Positions 7,351 through 15,091 of a stretch of DNA of 37,358 bases are shown here, in pieces. The position numbers and the translations under genes are program-made. The notes beneath the pieces are model-generated. The model made no database searches, had not been told where the DNA came from, and saw only the letters and a program-made list of their open reading frames with translations. Source of the DNA: a virus; UHGV virus genome UHGV-0063828; one strand, 5' to 3'. The stretch's first letter is position 1; each line of letters opens with the position of its first letter.

Positions 7351-9258
7351 ATGAAACTGATTTCTAATAAGGCAAAATTAAAAAAGATTCTTAAAAATGC
7401 AGCCAAATATATTACGCCACCGCCTAAGCTCCTTCCTTCTGAATGGTGCGAAGCGAATCTAACGCTAGTCGATGGTCCTCGTGCTGGGGATAAAGTTAAA
7501 TTACTGTCATTTCAGAAAGGCATGATTGATGCTCCTTTCCTTGAGAAGAAAAAGAAGTACGTTTTTTGTACGAGTGCGCAGATCGGAAAGACGACCATCA
7601 TGTCAGGGATCATGTTTAACCAGATGGCAAACGATCCGTGCAATATCATTATCGGGCAAAGTACCGCTAAAGAAGTGGCTATGTACTTGAATACTAAGAT
7701 CCGTCCTTCTATTGAAGCATGTCCGGCATTACAGGAAGTGGTAACAGATAAGAATGATCGTAATGCGGTAAACAACAATAACCAGATTCAGCTAAAAACA
7801 AACCATTTCCTTTACATGGTTTCTTTGACCAGTCCTTCAAGTTTGCGTGGGCGTACTGCCAAGTTAGGGATTGTAGACGAATGCGACGCAGCAACAATCA
7901 CCGAAGAAGGTTGTCCGGTGGCACTAACTGCAAACCGTTTAACTACCTTTGGTGATGAAGCTCGATTGATTGTTTCTAGTACCCCAACCAATAAGCTGGG
8001 AATCATTAACCAGCAATGGTTATCAAGTGATATGCGTATGTTTTTTGTTCCGTGTCCTCATTGCGGGGAACACCAGGTGATCGAGTGGGAAAACGTTCAA
8101 TTTGAATGGCGTAACATCGATGGTAAGAACTTACCCGATCCTGATACCGCTCGTTATATTTGCCCCCACTGTAAGAACGCATGGACCGAAGGGGAACGAA
8201 TCAGGGCAGTAGCACAAGGCGAGTGGAGAGCAACCCGTGAAAGTGAGGTAGCAGGATTCTGGATCAGCCGTCTGTATTCACCTTTCAGCACGATCCGCGC
8301 TTGTGTGGTTGATTTTAGTCATGCGTGGCAATCCTTTGATTTACAATCATTTTATAACACCGTGTTAGGCAAGGTATACGACGATCAGGACACGGCAGTA
8401 GAAGCAAATGAACTGGAACAACTCAAAACAGATGTTTCTATCGAGAATATCCCTGATGACGTAATTTTCTTGTGCTCAGGAATTGACCAGCAATTGGACC
8501 GCGCAGAATCTACCATCTTAGGTGTAGCGAAAGATAAGGTTTACATTCTGGATCACCGCAGCTTTTACGATCATAACTGTGAACGATACGAATCACCTGT
8601 TTGGGATCGTCTGGTTAACTTCAAGAAAACCAAATTCTATAACGTTAATGGTGAACGTGTGCCAATGCTCGCCAGCTTCCTTGATACATCGAACGGTCGA
8701 TTCACTCAAGCCGGATACCGTATTTGCGGCAAGTGGAAGAACCTACACGCTATCAAAGGTAGTTCATCTGGTAATGCTCCAGTGATTCCGGTTAAACCTA
8801 CCCGCACAGGTGGTCATGAATTGCTTATGTTGGGTGTTAACGTTGGGAAATCTGCTGTTCGTGAAATGTTGGTTAGAAACCTGAAAGACAATCCTCACAT
8901 TGGCTTAGAAATATCAGAAACCGTTCCTGATGATTATCTCGATCAGCTTTTGAGTGAATCCATCAAGCGTACTACTACTGGCGTGCGTTGGGTGAAAAAT
9001 CCAGGTAGTACCCGAAACGAGGCTCTCGACTGTCTGGTTTATAGCTATGCTGCTTCTCGCTACGTCCTTTCAAAAATGTCATGGGATAAACTCATTGCAA
9101 TGAAAGACAGCTTAAACCGTGTTGTCGAAGAATCCGTAAAAGCTCCTGAAACGCAATCTGACGAGCAAATCGAAGAAACTAAGCCAATCACACGACCGCA
9201 ACGTCAAAACATCGCCAGACGCCCAAATAGAGGCCGTAGCTGGGTAACATCGTTCTAA
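7351..9258 (+). CDS. Terminase large subunit, lambda gpA family
   Basis: P-loop region [10 protein letters not shown]; zinc-ribbon-like CPHCGEHQ...CPHC; GIDQQLDR and RNEALDC motifs as recalled from lambda gpA. Confidence 0.9.
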
Positions 9259-9835: not shown

Positions 9836-11347
9836 ATGTTTAATCTTTTTCGACGCAAAAAGGCGGTAGAAACTCCAGTTAAAACTAATCACCGCCAGCA
9901 ACAACAAAAAATCTTTATCGACAAACAAGTAGAAAAATTCCAGAAAGATTTGTCTAAGCGTTCTTTGGGCTTAGTTGGTGATCGCATTGATGGATCGCTT
10001 CAACAAGACACCATTACCGGAACCTTCAATAAGGCTCTCAAATCGAACGGTAAGCGCCTTTATGATCAGGGTCGTACTCTGGCCTTAAACACTTCCGTAG
10101 GCAGTCGCTACACGCAATACATCACCGATATGGTGGTCGGTGGTGGCCTAGATCCGAAGCCATCAATCGTTAAATCAAATGGCAAACTTGATAGCGCACT
10201 GAATAAGCAGATCGAGAATGCTTTCTGGAAGTGGGCGCAGAATGCTAAACGCTTCTCTCGCAATGGTCGTTTTAACTTCCGTGAACTGCTGGTAATGGCT
10301 GAACGTGAGCGCGTTATGGGTGGTGAGTGCTTCATAGTTTTAACCAAAGAAAACAATGAGTTAAATGTTTCTATCCTGTCTGCTGATAAGTGCGACTGGT
10401 CGCTTAGTCGTGAAATAAGCAAAGACCGCGCGATCTTTCAAGGGATTGAGTATGACGTAGAAACAATGCGCCCTGTAGCATACTGGTTTAGAAAAATCAA
10501 TCTACTGACTCAGACTTACACAGGTGATAACTATCGCGTAGATGCTTCGCAAGTATGCCATTATTATCAACCACTTGCGGCTGAATCTCTGCGTGGTGTG
10601 ACTGACTTCCTGCCAGTGATTAAGGATATCGCACATCAAGACGCATTCCGCGAAACTGCGATCGTCCAGAAACGTATTGCGGCTAGTTCTATGGGCTTTA
10701 TCGAACGTCCGAAAGATTCTGGTGACGATTTTGATACTGGTGAAGAGGATGAACAATACCAAGCGCCGGAAGTAGTACAGGACTTTGCACCGGGTACTAT
10801 TCAGGAATTGCCGGAAGGGGCAACGATCAAGAGCATCCAGGCGACGCAAAGCGGTGATGACTTTAACAGCTTCAATGATGCGATGTTTACTAGCGTATCA
10901 ATGGGCTTAGGCGTGTTCAAACAGGGCTTAACGGGAGATTGTTCACAGATCAACTACTCAGCCGCACGCTACGGCGAATTACTTCAAAGAACGCGCGTTA
11001 AAGCACTGCAAAACAAATTGATTGAAACAGTGGTGTCGCCCATTTTCGAAGCATATCTACGCCATTATTCCGCGCGTGGTGTTGTTCCGATTCGTATTAC
11101 TGCAATTCCACATATTATCGATAACACTACTATTATTCGTCCGCGTTTTGAATCCGTCGATCCATTTAAAGACGTAAGCGCCGAGATTGCTTTAATTGAT
11201 AACGGACTTAAATCACGTACTGCCGTTATATTGGAACGTGGTGATGATCCTGAAAAAGTATTCTCAGAGATTCAAGCCGAAAAGAGCGCACTAAATATTA
11301 TCGTTAATGGCGAGGGTGAAGAAAAAAATTCCCCAGCCGATCCCTAA
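9836..11347 (+). CDS. Portal protein, lambda gpB-like
   Basis: 503 aa directly downstream of the terminase; segment AMFTSVSMGLGVFKQGLTGDCSQINYSAARYG resembles lambda gpB as recalled. Confidence 0.8.
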   Translation: MFNLFRRKKAVETPVKTNHRQQQQKIFIDKQVEKFQKDLSKRSLGLVGDRIDGSLQQDTITGTFNKALKSNGKRLYDQGRTLALNTSVGSRYTQYITDMVVGGGLDPKPSIVKSNGKLDSALNKQIENAFWKWAQNAKRFSRNGRFNFRELLVMAERERVMGGECFIVLTKENNELNVSILSADKCDWSLSREISKDRAIFQGIEYDVETMRPVAYWFRKINLLTQTYTGDNYRVDASQVCHYYQPLAAESLRGVTDFLPVIKDIAHQDAFRETAIVQKRIAASSMGFIERPKDSGDDFDTGEEDEQYQAPEVVQDFAPGTIQELPEGATIKSIQATQSGDDFNSFNDAMFTSVSMGLGVFKQGLTGDCSQINYSAARYGELLQRTRVKALQNKLIETVVSPIFEAYLRHYSARGVVPIRITAIPHIIDNTTIIRPRFESVDPFKDVSAEIALIDNGLKSRTAVILERGDDPEKVFSEIQAEKSALNIIVNGEGEEKNSPADP

Positions 11348-11392
11348 TAACCAACGGGGGCGCAATGCCCCCAATTAATTAAAGGTGATTAA

Positions 11393-13402
11393 ATGCTTAA
11401 ATTTCGCCGCGATCTTAACAGTTACGGTGGAGTTATTAACGAAGGGCATAACGATCAATACGAATTTGAAATTGCTTTCTCCAGTACCCAGCCTTACCAG
11501 CGCCAATTCTGGGATGAGCAAAATCAAGAAATGGTGGTATTAGATGAAATTCTGGTACATACACCGGAAGCGGTTGATCTGTCTCGTCTGAATAATAACG
11601 CTCCGTTGCTGTTCAATCATAATTTCGATAATCACATTGGTGTAGTCTGCGACGCTCGAATCGATGCGGATAACGTAGGTCGTGCTCTGGTTAAATTCTC
11701 TAAGCATGGCACTTTGGCTAATGATATTCGCAATAAAGTCATTGAAGGTACGATGGAAAAAATTTCTGTCGGTTATGACATTAAAGAATATCACATCGAC
11801 TACACCAAAGGACAATTGATTGTTACTAAGTGGGCACCCTATGAACTCTCATTTGTCACCGTTCCCGCAGACGATACGGTCGGTTTAAATCGCTCTCTAA
11901 ATACTATCACAGTTAATTTGGAGGCTAAACGCGATATGACTAAAGAACAAATCGAAGAAATCAAAGAAGAACAAGAATCCGCTCAGGTTGAAGAAACTCC
12001 GGTAGAAGAAAATAAAGAACCGGAAGTTGAAGAAACTCAAGAGCGCCAAGTTGAAGAGAATAAAGAAAATGAAAATCTCGAAGACGGAAAAGACGCTGAA
12101 CATCCTGAAAGTGTTGATGATGATAGTTCAACTGTTCGGGAAACAGAAGAAGTAAAAGAAGAACGTGAAGCCGCTCCGGTTGAAGAAGAAAAAACCGAAG
12201 AAGTGGCTGAACGTTCCGAAGAAGACGAATTAGAAATTCGCGAAATTGCACGCGAACTAAATATTGATGACTCTGAATTAGCACGCGCATTGGCAATTAA
12301 AGACATGACGCCGGAAGCATTCCGCACTAAGGCACTAAATAACATTACCAATGCTCAACGTAATAACGAACAAATTAAGGACTCTAAAATGGAAAAAACT
12401 TTCGATCTTAATAACGTAATCCGCTCCCTGGTAGATGGCGACGTGCTCGGCGCTCATGAAGCTGAATATTCCGCAATGGCTGCTACTGCAACTATGCAGC
12501 GTGGTCGTGCTGCTCGCGGTGGCTCTGTATTCGTTCCTGCTGCTGCTATGCGTGCTGCTTCCGAAGGTAACACCAAAGCTACTCTGACTGCTGTTACTGA
12601 TGAAAAACTGCTGACTGAATCCTACATCGAAATGCTGCTTCCTGCTTCGTGTCTGGGTCGTCTGGGCGTGACCGTCCTGTCTGGTCTGAATAGCCCGATC
12701 GCTGTTCCGAAAATGACTGCTTCCAGCGTTGATGCATTTGGTTTTGTTGATGAAAACGGTGCTGCACCGGAAAGCAAAGCTGAATTTTCGAACGTGAAAA
12801 TGGCTCCGAAAACTTTTGCTGGTGGCAACCCGATCAGCCGTCAGTCTCTGAAAACTGTTCCGAATATTGCTACCCTGATCACTGATCATATTAACAAAGC
12901 TGTTCGCATCAAACTGGAACAACTGATTCTGTCTGACAAAGATAATACTCGCGGTCCGGCTGGTCTGGTTAAACAACTGGTAGATGGTGGTCGCGTTGCT
13001 AAGAAAACCGCTTTCAGCTACAAAGACCTGTTGAAAGAGATTGCCGCATTGACCGACGCTGGCGTTCCTGCTCAGGCGATCAAGTTCGCTATGAGTGGTG
13101 CAACTGCTGCTGAACTGGAATCTACCCCGAAATCTGATCGTGGTGACGCTCAAGGCTTCATTATGGAAAACGGCAAAATTGCTGGTTATGAAGTAGTTAC
13201 TTCTGGCGTTATTCCGGCAGATACGATCGTTCTGGGCGATTTCAGCGGCATTATCGTTGGGGAATGGGGAGGTCTTGAGCTAGATCTGGACGATTCGACG
13301 TACCGTGCCCAGTCGGCGATCGTGCCTCGTGTATGGCTGGATTTGGACTACGTTGTAGCACAGCCGGAAGCTCTGAAAGTTCTGAAAATTGGCGAAGAGT
13401 GA
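11393..13402 (+). CDS. Fused prohead protease / scaffold-like acidic linker / HK97-fold major capsid protein
   Basis: N-terminal ~180 aa prohead-protease-like; Glu/Lys-rich acidic middle; C-terminal ~337 aa capsid-like with strongly optimised codons; in-frame internal ATGs with SD at 11936 and 12389. Confidence 0.8.
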   Translation: MLKFRRDLNSYGGVINEGHNDQYEFEIAFSSTQPYQRQFWDEQNQEMVVLDEILVHTPEAVDLSRLNNNAPLLFNHNFDNHIGVVCDARIDADNVGRALVKFSKHGTLANDIRNKVIEGTMEKISVGYDIKEYHIDYTKGQLIVTKWAPYELSFVTVPADDTVGLNRSLNTITVNLEAKRDMTKEQIEEIKEEQESAQVEETPVEENKEPEVEETQERQVEENKENENLEDGKDAEHPESVDDDSSTVRETEEVKEEREAAPVEEEKTEEVAERSEEDELEIREIARELNIDDSELARALAIKDMTPEAFRTKALNNITNAQRNNEQIKDSKMEKTFDLNNVIRSLVDGDVLGAHEAEYSAMAATATMQRGRAARGGSVFVPAAAMRAASEGNTKATLTAVTDEKLLTESYIEMLLPASCLGRLGVTVLSGLNSPIAVPKMTASSVDAFGFVDENGAAPESKAEFSNVKMAPKTFAGGNPISRQSLKTVPNIATLITDHINKAVRIKLEQLILSDKDNTRGPAGLVKQLVDGGRVAKKTAFSYKDLLKEIAALTDAGVPAQAIKFAMSGATAAELESTPKSDRGDAQGFIMENGKIAGYEVVTSGVIPADTIVLGDFSGIIVGEWGGLELDLDDSTYRAQSAIVPRVWLDLDYVVAQPEALKVLKIGEE

Positions 13403-13493
13403 AATAACGAAGAATTGCCGGAAGAAATTCCGGTAGTTACGGCGAAAGCCACAGCTAAAAAGGTGGGACGTCCACCGAAAGCAAAATAATAAT

Positions 13494-13522
13494 TAGCCCT
13501 GCCTAACGGTGGGGCTTTTTTG
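13494..13522 (+). terminator. Intrinsic terminator after capsid gene
   Basis: AGCCCTGCC-TAAC-GGTGGGGCT hairpin with wobble pairs followed by TTTTTT. Confidence 0.6.
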
Positions 13523-13551
13523 TATGTAAATACTCCATAAAGGGGGTAACT

Positions 13552-13842
13552 ATGTTCAAATTATCAGAATCACAATTATCAAGAATGTTCCGAAGTGCTC
13601 CTGTATTTTCGGTGGAAGGTGGTAAATCAATTCGTGCTTATCATGAAATTACTACTACCGACGAACAAGGGGTAATGACAGAGACAGAATTTTTATTTTG
13701 TCGTGAGGGAGACTTAAAGCAGGGTGATATTGTCATTGTAGAAAATCAGCGTTTCAAAGTTCAATACGTTAAGCGCAATGGTGACAATACAACTGATTGC
13801 TTTATCACTCTGGCAGGGGGTACACATGCTCGCTACCGTTAA
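13552..13842 (+). CDS. Putative head-tail connector / head completion protein (96 aa)
   Basis: AAGGGGG SD; position immediately after capsid gene and terminator. Confidence 0.45.
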   Translation: MFKLSESQLSRMFRSAPVFSVEGGKSIRAYHEITTTDEQGVMTETEFLFCREGDLKQGDIVIVENQRFKVQYVKRNGDNTTDCFITLAGGTHARYR

Positions 13843-14248
13843 TAATATGCCGAGACTGAAAATCAAACGCGCCTTGCAAGATATTATCGAACAAGATTTA
13901 GGTCTGGCTTTAAACGTAGAACAAACTCAGCAAGGCTTTAGTGATGATGTGGTTTGTTGGATCACCGGAATGAATGAGACTTACACTAGGGTCCGTGGTG
14001 GTAATGCAATGCAAGCTGAATGCGTTATCGAAATGCAATTGTATTCTCAGATTCATGAAACCAAAATTCATGAGGGTATTTGCCAGATAATCCAGATTCA
14101 GCCGGATAACCCACGTTTTAAAGATTTGGGCTTCGCTATTTCAGATATCACTCCAGTAGCTTCTAATACCGATTATGACGATGATTCTAGTGATGGGGGT
14201 ATCGTTGGGACACTTAGCCTTAAATTTTCTTATCTAGCGCGTTTTTAA
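13826..14248 (+). CDS. Putative head-tail connector protein (141 aa)
   Basis: Start placed at ATG 13826 with GGGGG SD, overlapping the previous gene end; positional inference only. Confidence 0.4.
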   Translation: MLATVNNMPRLKIKRALQDIIEQDLGLALNVEQTQQGFSDDVVCWITGMNETYTRVRGGNAMQAECVIEMQLYSQIHETKIHEGICQIIQIQPDNPRFKDLGFAISDITPVASNTDYDDDSSDGGIVGTLSLKFSYLARF

Positions 14249-14257
14249 GGGGTAATA

Positions 14258-15091
14258 ATGAATATTACACAAGATAACTTAGACATTTTCACGGGGTCGC
14301 ATGTTGAAGTCTCCGTGTCTACTATGGTGGATAACCAGCCGGACTTTTTCGATCCTGCATTTAGTCCTATCGAGAACATCGCAGCATTCCCGACGATAAC
14401 CGAATCTACAGATATCCAGACGTTAGAAGAGTATGATCAGGACGCTACGGGTAAACTTGCTGGCTATCGTAAACTGGAACCGACAACACTCACGTTAAAC
14501 CGTGTTCTGGATGACGAACATCAAGCAATGTTGATGAAAGCGGTAGAGGATAAAACACCTTTACGCTTCCGTATGTTCTATGTTGTGAACTCTGGCTATA
14601 GTGCTGCTAACACTGGTTACTATGTCATCTATGATGCTTACGTCACATCACATAAAACCCGTGGTAGTGATAACAAAGCTGTAACACTGGAATTTAAACT
14701 TGAACCAGATGGCGGGATTCTAGCAAGGGGTATAGCGACCGAGGGAAAAATTCTGCGACAAGGTGATTTTGGTATTGGTGCTGGTGTACATCCATTCACT
14801 GGTCCGATTGATAGTGAAGCATTAGCCGGAAACCGTTTCGTAACTTATCAGGGATCGAGCGCATCTAATCCATTTAGTGCTGATACTTCACTAATTCACG
14901 TTCAACCTAATGAAGATGGTGGATGGCAATTAACTTGCACCGCTTCCGGCGCACCACGTTTACGAGTTCGCACAGTCCAGAAAGACGGTAATTCGGGATG
15001 GGTGAAAGTGTATTCCACAGAAGAAAAACCGACACCAGCCGAGATTGAAGCCGTTTCTATCCATGACCGGATCGACTTCGGGGAATACTGA
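14258..15091 (+). CDS. Tail- or fibre-associated structural protein (277 aa)
   Basis: AAGGGG SD; C-terminal EEKPTPAEIEAVS motif also present inside the downstream tail fibre (GDKPTPAEIGAYS); ordinary codon usage argues against it being the major tail protein. Confidence 0.5.
   Translation: MNITQDNLDIFTGSHVEVSVSTMVDNQPDFFDPAFSPIENIAAFPTITESTDIQTLEEYDQDATGKLAGYRKLEPTTLTLNRVLDDEHQAMLMKAVEDKTPLRFRMFYVVNSGYSAANTGYYVIYDAYVTSHKTRGSDNKAVTLEFKLEPDGGILARGIATEGKILRQGDFGIGAGVHPFTGPIDSEALAGNRFVTYQGSSASNPFSADTSLIHVQPNEDGGWQLTCTASGAPRLRVRTVQKDGNSGWVKVYSTEEKPTPAEIEAVSIHDRIDFGEY

Follow-up and report, generated by a model that had tools for sequence, protein, structure and literature searches.

In phage lambda (C/Nu3) and phage Mu (I/Z), an in-frame start inside the protease gene produces a co-C-terminal assembly protein that lacks the protease and is made in excess. 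In systems of the lambda type, the choice of initiation site sets the stoichiometry. Herpes simplex virus 1 UL26/UL26.5 and the archaeal virus HFTV1 gp17/gp17.5 follow the same plan, and nested protease genes have been described for these two viruses as well as for lambda (bioRxiv 10.64898/2026.09.13.751334). Here, we analyzed a gene of the virus genome UHGV-0063828, for which the same logic has been proposed. The window, which is the whole stretch of DNA under analysis, has a length of 37,358 nucleotides (nt), and the gene is a single open reading frame (ORF) that joins a prohead protease, a linker, a scaffold-like region and an HK97-fold capsid protein. We consider it probable that at least one start site inside this ORF is used; the use of two such sites has slightly less than an even chance. 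The window would then work like C/Nu3, but the arrangement differs. In lambda C/Nu3, the shared C-terminal part is scaffold only and the capsid gene is separate, whereas in the window the nested products would include the capsid domain, and there are possibly two internal starts. The lambda C protease also belongs to a protease family different from S78, the family of the protease studied here.

In phage HK97, protease and capsid protein are encoded by two genes, and the protease is recruited non-covalently. HK97 gp4 (an S78 protease) and gp5 (a capsid protein with an N-terminal delta domain) represent the same two Pfam families as the fused ORF, in the same order and next to the portal gene. 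The fold is the same, and in HK97, as predicted for the window, the scaffold function is N-terminal in the capsid precursor and is removed by the protease. Unlike HK97, the window has no stop codon between protease and capsid, which would tether the protease covalently, and downstream start signals persist. The fused ORF may be viewed as an HK97 gp4-gp5 pair that has lost the intervening stop codon and kept the downstream start signals. In phage P2, gpO is a protease fused to a scaffold in one chain that processes itself (bioRxiv 10.64898/2026.09.13.751334; PMC10612066). Unlike the window, P2 gpO has no capsid domain, and these papers describe no internal start for it.

Genes in which protease, scaffold and capsid protein are fused are known from earlier work and are very widespread. 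They have been annotated in actinobacteriophage clusters EE, AN and others, in the Rhodobacter RcC cluster, in Paracoccus prophages and in Lactococcus phage c2 (PMC7302621, PMC8601537, PMC6536676). Like the window, these loci have a single ORF with the prohead protease at the N-terminus and the capsid protein at the C-terminus, and some of them use other families (ClpP with Mu gpT in Paracoccus). Unlike the model considered here, they are described as one fused polypeptide; internal initiation in protease-capsid fusions was not reported in the literature searched, and its absence there is not proof. Papers on Sp5, CBASS and XM1 were irrelevant to the fused gene. Our scan of 1.84 billion cluster representatives (clusters at 50% identity) gave 6886 matches, of which the best 146 were all full-length fusions of 540–720 amino acids (aa). 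Both domains lie in one uninterrupted frame in these best 146 of the 6886, and also in 34 close relatives of the window and in 78 diverse viral contigs. The cultured phages VP882, phiHAP-1, R4C, RcCronus, FoX, Mano, Arya, ep3 and Bas97 have the same fused gene. Thousands of phages and prophages carry protease-capsid fusion genes, which are annotated as a single 'major capsid protein'.

One explanation for such genes is that only the full-length polypeptide (669 aa in the window) is made. Each subunit would then bring its own protease and scaffold and be trimmed after assembly, with P2 gpO as the model. Internal start motifs would be chance matches or decaying relics of gene boundaries, and a codon usage difference along the gene would reflect mosaic origin or stronger selection on the part retained in the virion. 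We consider this explanation improbable. It also leaves a puzzle, because each of about 415 subunits would have its own protease and a large scaffold, and in well-studied phages protease is present in minor amounts. The puzzle would disappear with conserved internal starts, which would extend the start-choice dosage of C/Nu3 to the capsid gene itself. If they are used, internal starts would be a property of a very large family of 'fused' capsid genes, whose members include the genes of VP882, R4C, phiHAP-1 and the BASEL phage Bas97. The annotation of these genes would change, and so would the reading of proteomic and cryo-EM data on such phages.

The first-pass annotation had described one ORF spanning three normally separate functions, with in-frame ATG codons preceded by Shine-Dalgarno (SD) sequences at 11936 (GGAGG) and 12389 (AAGGA), and had proposed nested products like lambda C/Nu3. 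The ORF exists exactly as claimed, and the Pfam families S78 and Phage_capsid, the AlphaFold2 domains and the HK97 fold found with Foldseek show that it spans the three functions. Both start motifs are present at these positions, and the proposal of nested products is supported by the comparative and compositional evidence given below, that is, the conservation of SD and ATG and a step in codon usage. The features of the gene are as follows.

11382–11389, + strand: SD-like sequence AAGGTGAT of the annotated full-length start, with a duplex of −4.3 kcal/mol against the 9-nt anti-SD
11393–13402, + strand: fused ORF (protease, linker, scaffold-like region, HK97-fold capsid protein), 669 aa, 73.6 kDa, ATG start, TGA stop
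11393–11896, + strand: HK97-type prohead serine protease domain, aa 1–168, with a folded core at aa 21–168 (Pfam PF04586; predicted local distance difference test score, pLDDT, >90)
11920–11938, + strand: putative internal start site 1, GGAGG at 11920–11924, 11-nt spacer, ATG at 11936–11938 (M182), in frame; product of 488 aa and 53.0 kDa
11936–12202, + strand: acidic, mostly disordered linker, aa 182–270, isoelectric point 4.05, 38 D+E against 10 K+R (disorder from AlphaFold2)
12203–12568, + strand: helical scaffold-like (delta-domain-like) region, aa 271–392 (AlphaFold2 helices at 276–390 and family consensus)
12377–12391, + strand: putative internal start site 2, AAGGA at 12377–12381, 7-nt spacer, ATG at 12389–12391 (M333), in frame; product of 337 aa and 35.5 kDa
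12569–12613, + strand: predicted flexible loop with a probable maturation cleavage site, aa 393–407, pLDDT <50
12614–13399, + strand: HK97-fold capsid domain, strongly codon-optimised, aa 408–669 (Pfam PF05065, Foldseek, codon adaptation)

We compared 78 fused loci from viral contigs (24–40% identity), which were dereplicated to 39 lineages. Every in-frame codon was scored for an SD core (GGAG, GAGG, AGGA or longer) located 4–11 nt upstream. The SD frequencies in the 78 loci are listed below.

In-frame ATGs 8–30 residues past the protease domain: 35/68 (51%)
Non-ATG codons in the same post-protease zone: 183/1726 (10.6%)
Out-of-frame ATGs in the same post-protease zone: 3/42 (7%)
ATGs in the protease domain: 7%
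ATGs of the remaining linker: 11%
ATGs in the capsid domain: 3.6% (ATGs elsewhere in the ORF overall, 4–11%)

After dereplication, an SD preceded 20 of the 31 post-protease ATGs and 99 of the 866 neighbouring codons (Fisher's test, p = 1.6 × 10−11). The rate at the post-protease ATG (51–65%) can be compared with 55% (31/56) for annotated starts and a background of about 11%. The full-length-only explanation does not predict that this ATG would have an SD as often as true starts do across lineages with unalignable linkers, or that out-of-frame ATGs of the same zone would show no such enrichment. Our position-blind scan of the alignment found hot spots of ATG plus SD only at the annotated starts (the positive control, 31/56), in the post-protease zone and in the column of M333 (11/14). 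At the protein level, Met was two-fold enriched 10–24 residues after a conserved Arg in the 146 cluster representatives. The equivalents of site 1 are M185 in VP882, M189 in R4C, M152 in phiHAP-1, M190 in RcCronus, M217 in Bas97 and M180 in DCP80, and in the named phages the equivalent is usually the sole internal ATG with an SD. These results give strong comparative support to a putative internal start after the protease domain that is conserved beyond chance among diverged relatives.

Starts of the M333 type occur only in the clade closest to the window, which contains seven lineages with <60% mutual identity. In all seven, AAG-GAx lies 7–13 nt before the ATG, and AAG accounts for only 10–40% of their Lys codons. 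The peptide spacing from Lys-Asp/Glu to Met varies among them. Because the rare AAG is kept while the peptide spacing varies, a signal in the nucleotide sequence explains the pattern better than a peptide motif does, and the retention of rare AAG codons to form AAGGA also argues against the full-length-only explanation. Site 1 is missing in several of these seven lineages. Among the 34 close relatives, the AAGGA and the ATG of site 2 are invariant and the spacer changes. A conserved Met column at window residue 328/329 (motif IGM-x-DK) was rejected as a start; it is without an SD and is a structural Met/Leu position. Two sets of overlapping ORFs were likewise set aside. The extra coding sequences under the VP882 gene in its GenBank record are antisense calls and not nested genes, and the antisense ORFs in the linker of the window (11897–12103, 11961–12296 and 12037–12351) were judged to be artefacts of GAA-rich sequence, since they are its reverse complements and are rich in Phe, Leu and Ser.

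In the window itself, the SD:anti-SD duplex energies are −9.3 kcal/mol for site 1 and −5.8 kcal/mol for site 2. The real genes of this phage range from −4.3 to −12 kcal/mol, with −5.7 for the tail-tube gene, and values of −5 or below occur at only 5.7% of ORF positions. When the 14 in-frame ATGs are compared, the local RNA is least structured around the three at 11393, 11936 and 12389; an estimate of unpaired probability in a 300-nt context did not single out 11936.

The domain anatomy of the fused protein is well defined. Peptidase_S78 (PF04586) matches aa 40–162 (E = 5.5 × 10−10; 40.1 bits against a cut-off of 21 bits). H76 and S125 of this domain are invariant in 61 diverse homologs (24–43% identity), and we take them to be the likely catalytic pair by analogy with HK97 gp4. 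Phage_capsid (PF05065) matches aa 412–666 (E = 8.6 × 10−25; 88.1 bits against 24.2 bits). The AlphaFold2 model, which was built on the 61 homologs, has a confident protease domain at aa 21–168, disorder at 169–181 and 201–270, a confident all-helical region at 271–390, a low-confidence loop at 393–407 and an HK97 fold at 408–669 (pLDDT ~90). The scaffold-like region (aa 271–392) is conserved family-wide. Foldseek matched the HK97-fold part to the capsids of R4C (8gta), RcGTA, D3 and HK97 with probability 1.00 and template modelling (TM, target) scores of 0.6–0.76.

The capsid part also matches the PDB chain 8gta_A (E = 2.7 × 10−23). This solved capsid chain of roseophage R4C has 268 aa and is the C-terminal end of the 629-aa product of a fused ORF. 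The alignment places the start of the chain at window residue 398, so that the mature N-terminus in the window is predicted to lie at about this residue, with probable cleavage close to this position and a mature capsid protein of about aa 398–669 (28.7 kDa). It had also been claimed that initiation at 12389 would yield a capsid protein of canonical size, about 337 aa. A product of 337 aa would indeed start there; it would not be the mature capsid protein, because a propeptide of about 65 aa would remain.

Codon usage, a stand-in for ribosome flux, gives a second line of evidence. We calculated the codon adaptation index (CAI) with the E. coli values of Sharp and Li, which are approximate for other hosts, and found 0.32 for the protease, 0.45 for the linker and 0.58 for aa 333–669 over all codons, where most genes of the window have 0.25–0.35. 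The codon usage of the protease and of aa 333–669 was significantly different (Mann-Whitney, p = 1.5 × 10−6). Only the Glu/Lys content of the linker accounts for its intermediate value. A first change-point analysis with all codons gave a tie between residues 178 and 330, which was an artefact of GAA/AAA-rich stretches; removal of Glu and Lys left one step at about 341. The CAI values without Glu and Lys are as follows.

aa 1–181: 0.29
aa 182–270: 0.32
aa 271–332: 0.28
aa 333–397: 0.63
aa 398–669: 0.54

The single change point lies at residue 341 (support 317–361), and none of 2000 permutations reached it. The optimised style that the first-pass annotation had noticed in the capsid portion is real, and the step coincides with M333, not with M182 and not with the predicted mature N-terminus. 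In this prophage, it thus points to 12389, not 11936, as the putative high-flux start. On the full-length-only explanation, a step some 65 residues before the predicted mature N-terminus would not be expected. The propeptide, which would be discarded, is as codon-optimised as the mature part, which argues against selection on the retained part alone. The capsid part was more biased than the protease part in 37 of 39 lineages by CAI and in 32 of 39 by the host-independent effective number of codons (Nc), and independent mosaic histories would not produce such a result. In lineages with site 1 only, the linker downstream of the site uses capsid-like codons in 16 of 17. The only other structural gene of the window with a CAI >0.6 is the tail-tube gene.

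Taken as a model, one mRNA frame would give nested, co-C-terminal capsid precursors. Initiation at 11393 would produce a minor full-length chain of 73.6 kDa, by which the S78 protease would enter the procapsid covalently tethered to a capsid subunit. Initiation at 12389 would produce the 35.5-kDa precursor with its short propeptide (~65 aa), and this is presumably the abundant product. A 53-kDa form from 11936, probably minor, would have the whole acidic linker, the helical scaffold region and the capsid domain but no protease. By analogy with HK97, all forms would co-assemble via the shared HK97-fold domain, and a few tethered proteases would cut every chain near residue 398, release the N-terminal parts and leave a capsid protein of about 29 kDa. 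The ratio of protease, scaffold and capsid would then depend on how strong the three ribosome-binding sites are relative to one another and not on separate genes.

Several points weigh against this model or in favour of full-length translation only. The gene is annotated as one protein everywhere, and published accounts regard such genes as simple fusions (PMC7302621, PMC6536676, PMC8601537). Within the window, the two sites are statistically not unusual: 2 of 13 internal ATGs have an SD and about 0.7 are expected, which is not beyond chance, so the significance comes solely from comparison with relatives. Among these relatives, a recognisable SD at site 1 is found in only about half of the lineages, and some, among them Xanthomonas phage FoX2, have no equivalent of site 1 with an SD. 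Two close relatives whose protease allele is a different one lack M182 and have GGAG-N8-GTG in its place. The spacer of site 1 is long (11 nt). Site 2 lies inside a predicted long helix (aa 307–336), and its product would lack half of the scaffold-like region. The codon weights are approximate for hosts other than E. coli, as stated above. The linker is not codon-optimised in this prophage, and site 1 may therefore contribute little here. Finally, the protease module is swapped as a mosaic unit and may have a different history, and the low synonymous divergence at aa 166–270, which is described next, may reflect recombination and not constraint.

We examined nucleotide diversity among 30 close relatives. 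The gene bodies of the head module differ by 10–30% among these related prophages, and diversity collapses to near zero at the true gene junctions, at about 9300, 9840, 11340, 13500, 14200 and 15120. These dips fit conserved translation-initiation regions or module exchange directed to junctions. Diversity also collapses inside the ORF, over about 350 nt at 11880–12230 (aa 166–270), in a block that resembles those at gene junctions. Its synonymous divergence (pS) is 0.039, about five-fold lower than elsewhere (0.17–0.30). The onset of the block is abrupt and follows directly on the most variable part of the protease domain. At about 11945, a mosaic breakpoint, the sequence of two prophages whose protease allele differs changes over to the common one. 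The border between protease and linker thus behaves like a boundary between exchangeable modules. The block itself could mark a junction at which modules have recombined, or it could be under a nucleic-acid constraint of a kind not yet recognised.

Such a conserved block would also fit an embedded nucleic-acid signal. In an explanation at the RNA level, an internal promoter or RNA processing site in the linker would give a short, abundant mRNA that is translated from 12389, and transcription or processing would set the stoichiometry. Phage late promoters need not look like sigma-70 sites. However, we found no sigma-70-like promoter on the + strand inside the ORF and no known RNA family in an Rfam scan of 10500–14500, and the conserved block resembles ordinary gene-junction blocks. 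The SD and ATG at 12389 would still be required, so this mechanism would add to nested translation instead of replacing it. As a separate account it is very unlikely. The weakest explanation, that the internal SD-like motifs are pause sites which let the protease domain fold before the linker emerges, fits the position of a motif at the domain boundary but is scarcely credible, because the motif is tied to an in-frame ATG 4–11 nt downstream and occurs at background frequency before the non-ATG codons of the zone, and because pausing does not predict the step in codon usage.

Besides the internal starts of the nested-translation model, the 3' end of the gene has a further candidate signal. The two features concerned are as follows.

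13400–13492, + strand: TGA stop (TGA-A) followed by a conserved in-frame extension of 28 codons (13403–13486) and then TAA TAA; candidate read-through tail
13495–13524, + strand: intrinsic terminator-like hairpin with a T-run directly past the extension; nucleotide diversity 0.014 among relatives

The extension of the window reads NNEELPEEIPVVTAKATAKKVGRPPKAK in its 28 codons. TGA-A was present in 32 of 32 relatives examined, in which the extensions have 27, 28, 42, 43, 44 or 45 codons and the same TAA TAA end each time, and all indels are multiples of three. The other two frames carry stops in 30 of 30 aligned loci, and the extension lacks its own start codon. It consists of an acidic or Pro-rich spacer and then a basic tail (KKVGRPPKAK or KKQRKTKE). 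Its CAI without Glu and Lys is 0.26, a background level, as expected for rare decoding. No extension was found in distant fused relatives. This pattern suggests programmed UGA read-through, by which a few capsid subunits would gain the acidic spacer and the basic tail; the junction would be ...LKIGEE-W-NNEELPEEIPVVTAK, with Trp at the UGA. In Q-beta (the A1 read-through protein) and in T7 (capsid protein 10B), recoding where the coat gene ends likewise extends a minor fraction of the capsid subunits at the C-terminus. Q-beta is an RNA phage, and T7 10B arises by a frameshift and not by read-through. We found no description of UGA read-through in the capsid gene of a tailed dsDNA phage in the literature searched, and absence there is not proof; if translated, the tail would be an unusual case of stop-codon read-through in such a phage. 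It is tempting to combine both proposals, so that the single gene would be decoded in up to four ways by starts at 11393, 11936 and 12389 and by a leaky TGA at 13400 with the conserved basic tail of 27–45 codons. This combination is doubtful as a whole. If true, protease carrier, scaffold carrier, bulk capsid subunit and rare tailed subunit would all come from one frame, in fixed proportions.

The fused ORF sits in a head-morphogenesis module, as indicated by a terminase and a portal upstream and a head-tail attachment-like protein downstream. The upstream genes are a gpA-type large terminase (7351–9258), a 164-aa protein of unknown family and a lambda-family portal (9836–11347). Farther along the window there are a tail-tube-like gene (a weak match, below the Pfam threshold), a gpJ-like tip protein, a UvsW-like helicase and a serine recombinase. 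From the content of head-module, tail and recombinase genes, the window is a temperate siphovirus-type prophage. The 669-aa protein shares 93–100% identity with proteins entered as 'phage major capsid protein' in many E. coli genomes and prophages. DNA of the prophage family with the fused ORF was present in 49 of 5426 complete E. coli genomes, every time in the chromosome, and a nucleotide search against phage records found no match for the element. In the phage database, the closest relative of the head module is Escherichia phage DCP80 (PQ671644.1, 1–13765; 45% identity). This module is the left end of a 141-kb record classed as T4-like Straboviridae, and its terminase, portal and fused capsid are lambda/HK97-like. 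The record looks like a chimeric assembly or a misclassification.

A GC-rich hairpin (GGGGGC-GCAAT-GCCCCC, 11355–11373) lies after the portal stop and before the SD of the fused ORF, and it hardly varies in relatives. No T-run follows it on the + strand, which makes a terminator improbable; it may be an element of RNA stability or attenuation. In E. coli CFSAN061761 (7275–8519 of locus L040), a GIY-YIG nuclease gene, probably a homing endonuclease, is inserted between the counterpart of the gene at window positions 14258–15091 and the tail-fibre gene; the window lacks this insertion. The highest E. coli-type codon adaptation of the window (CAI 0.64, which equals that of the capsid and tail-tube genes) belongs to a 313-aa ORF on the − strand (1871–2812) with no Pfam match. 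This value suggests very high expression, or a gene that is expressed in lysogeny or derived from the host.

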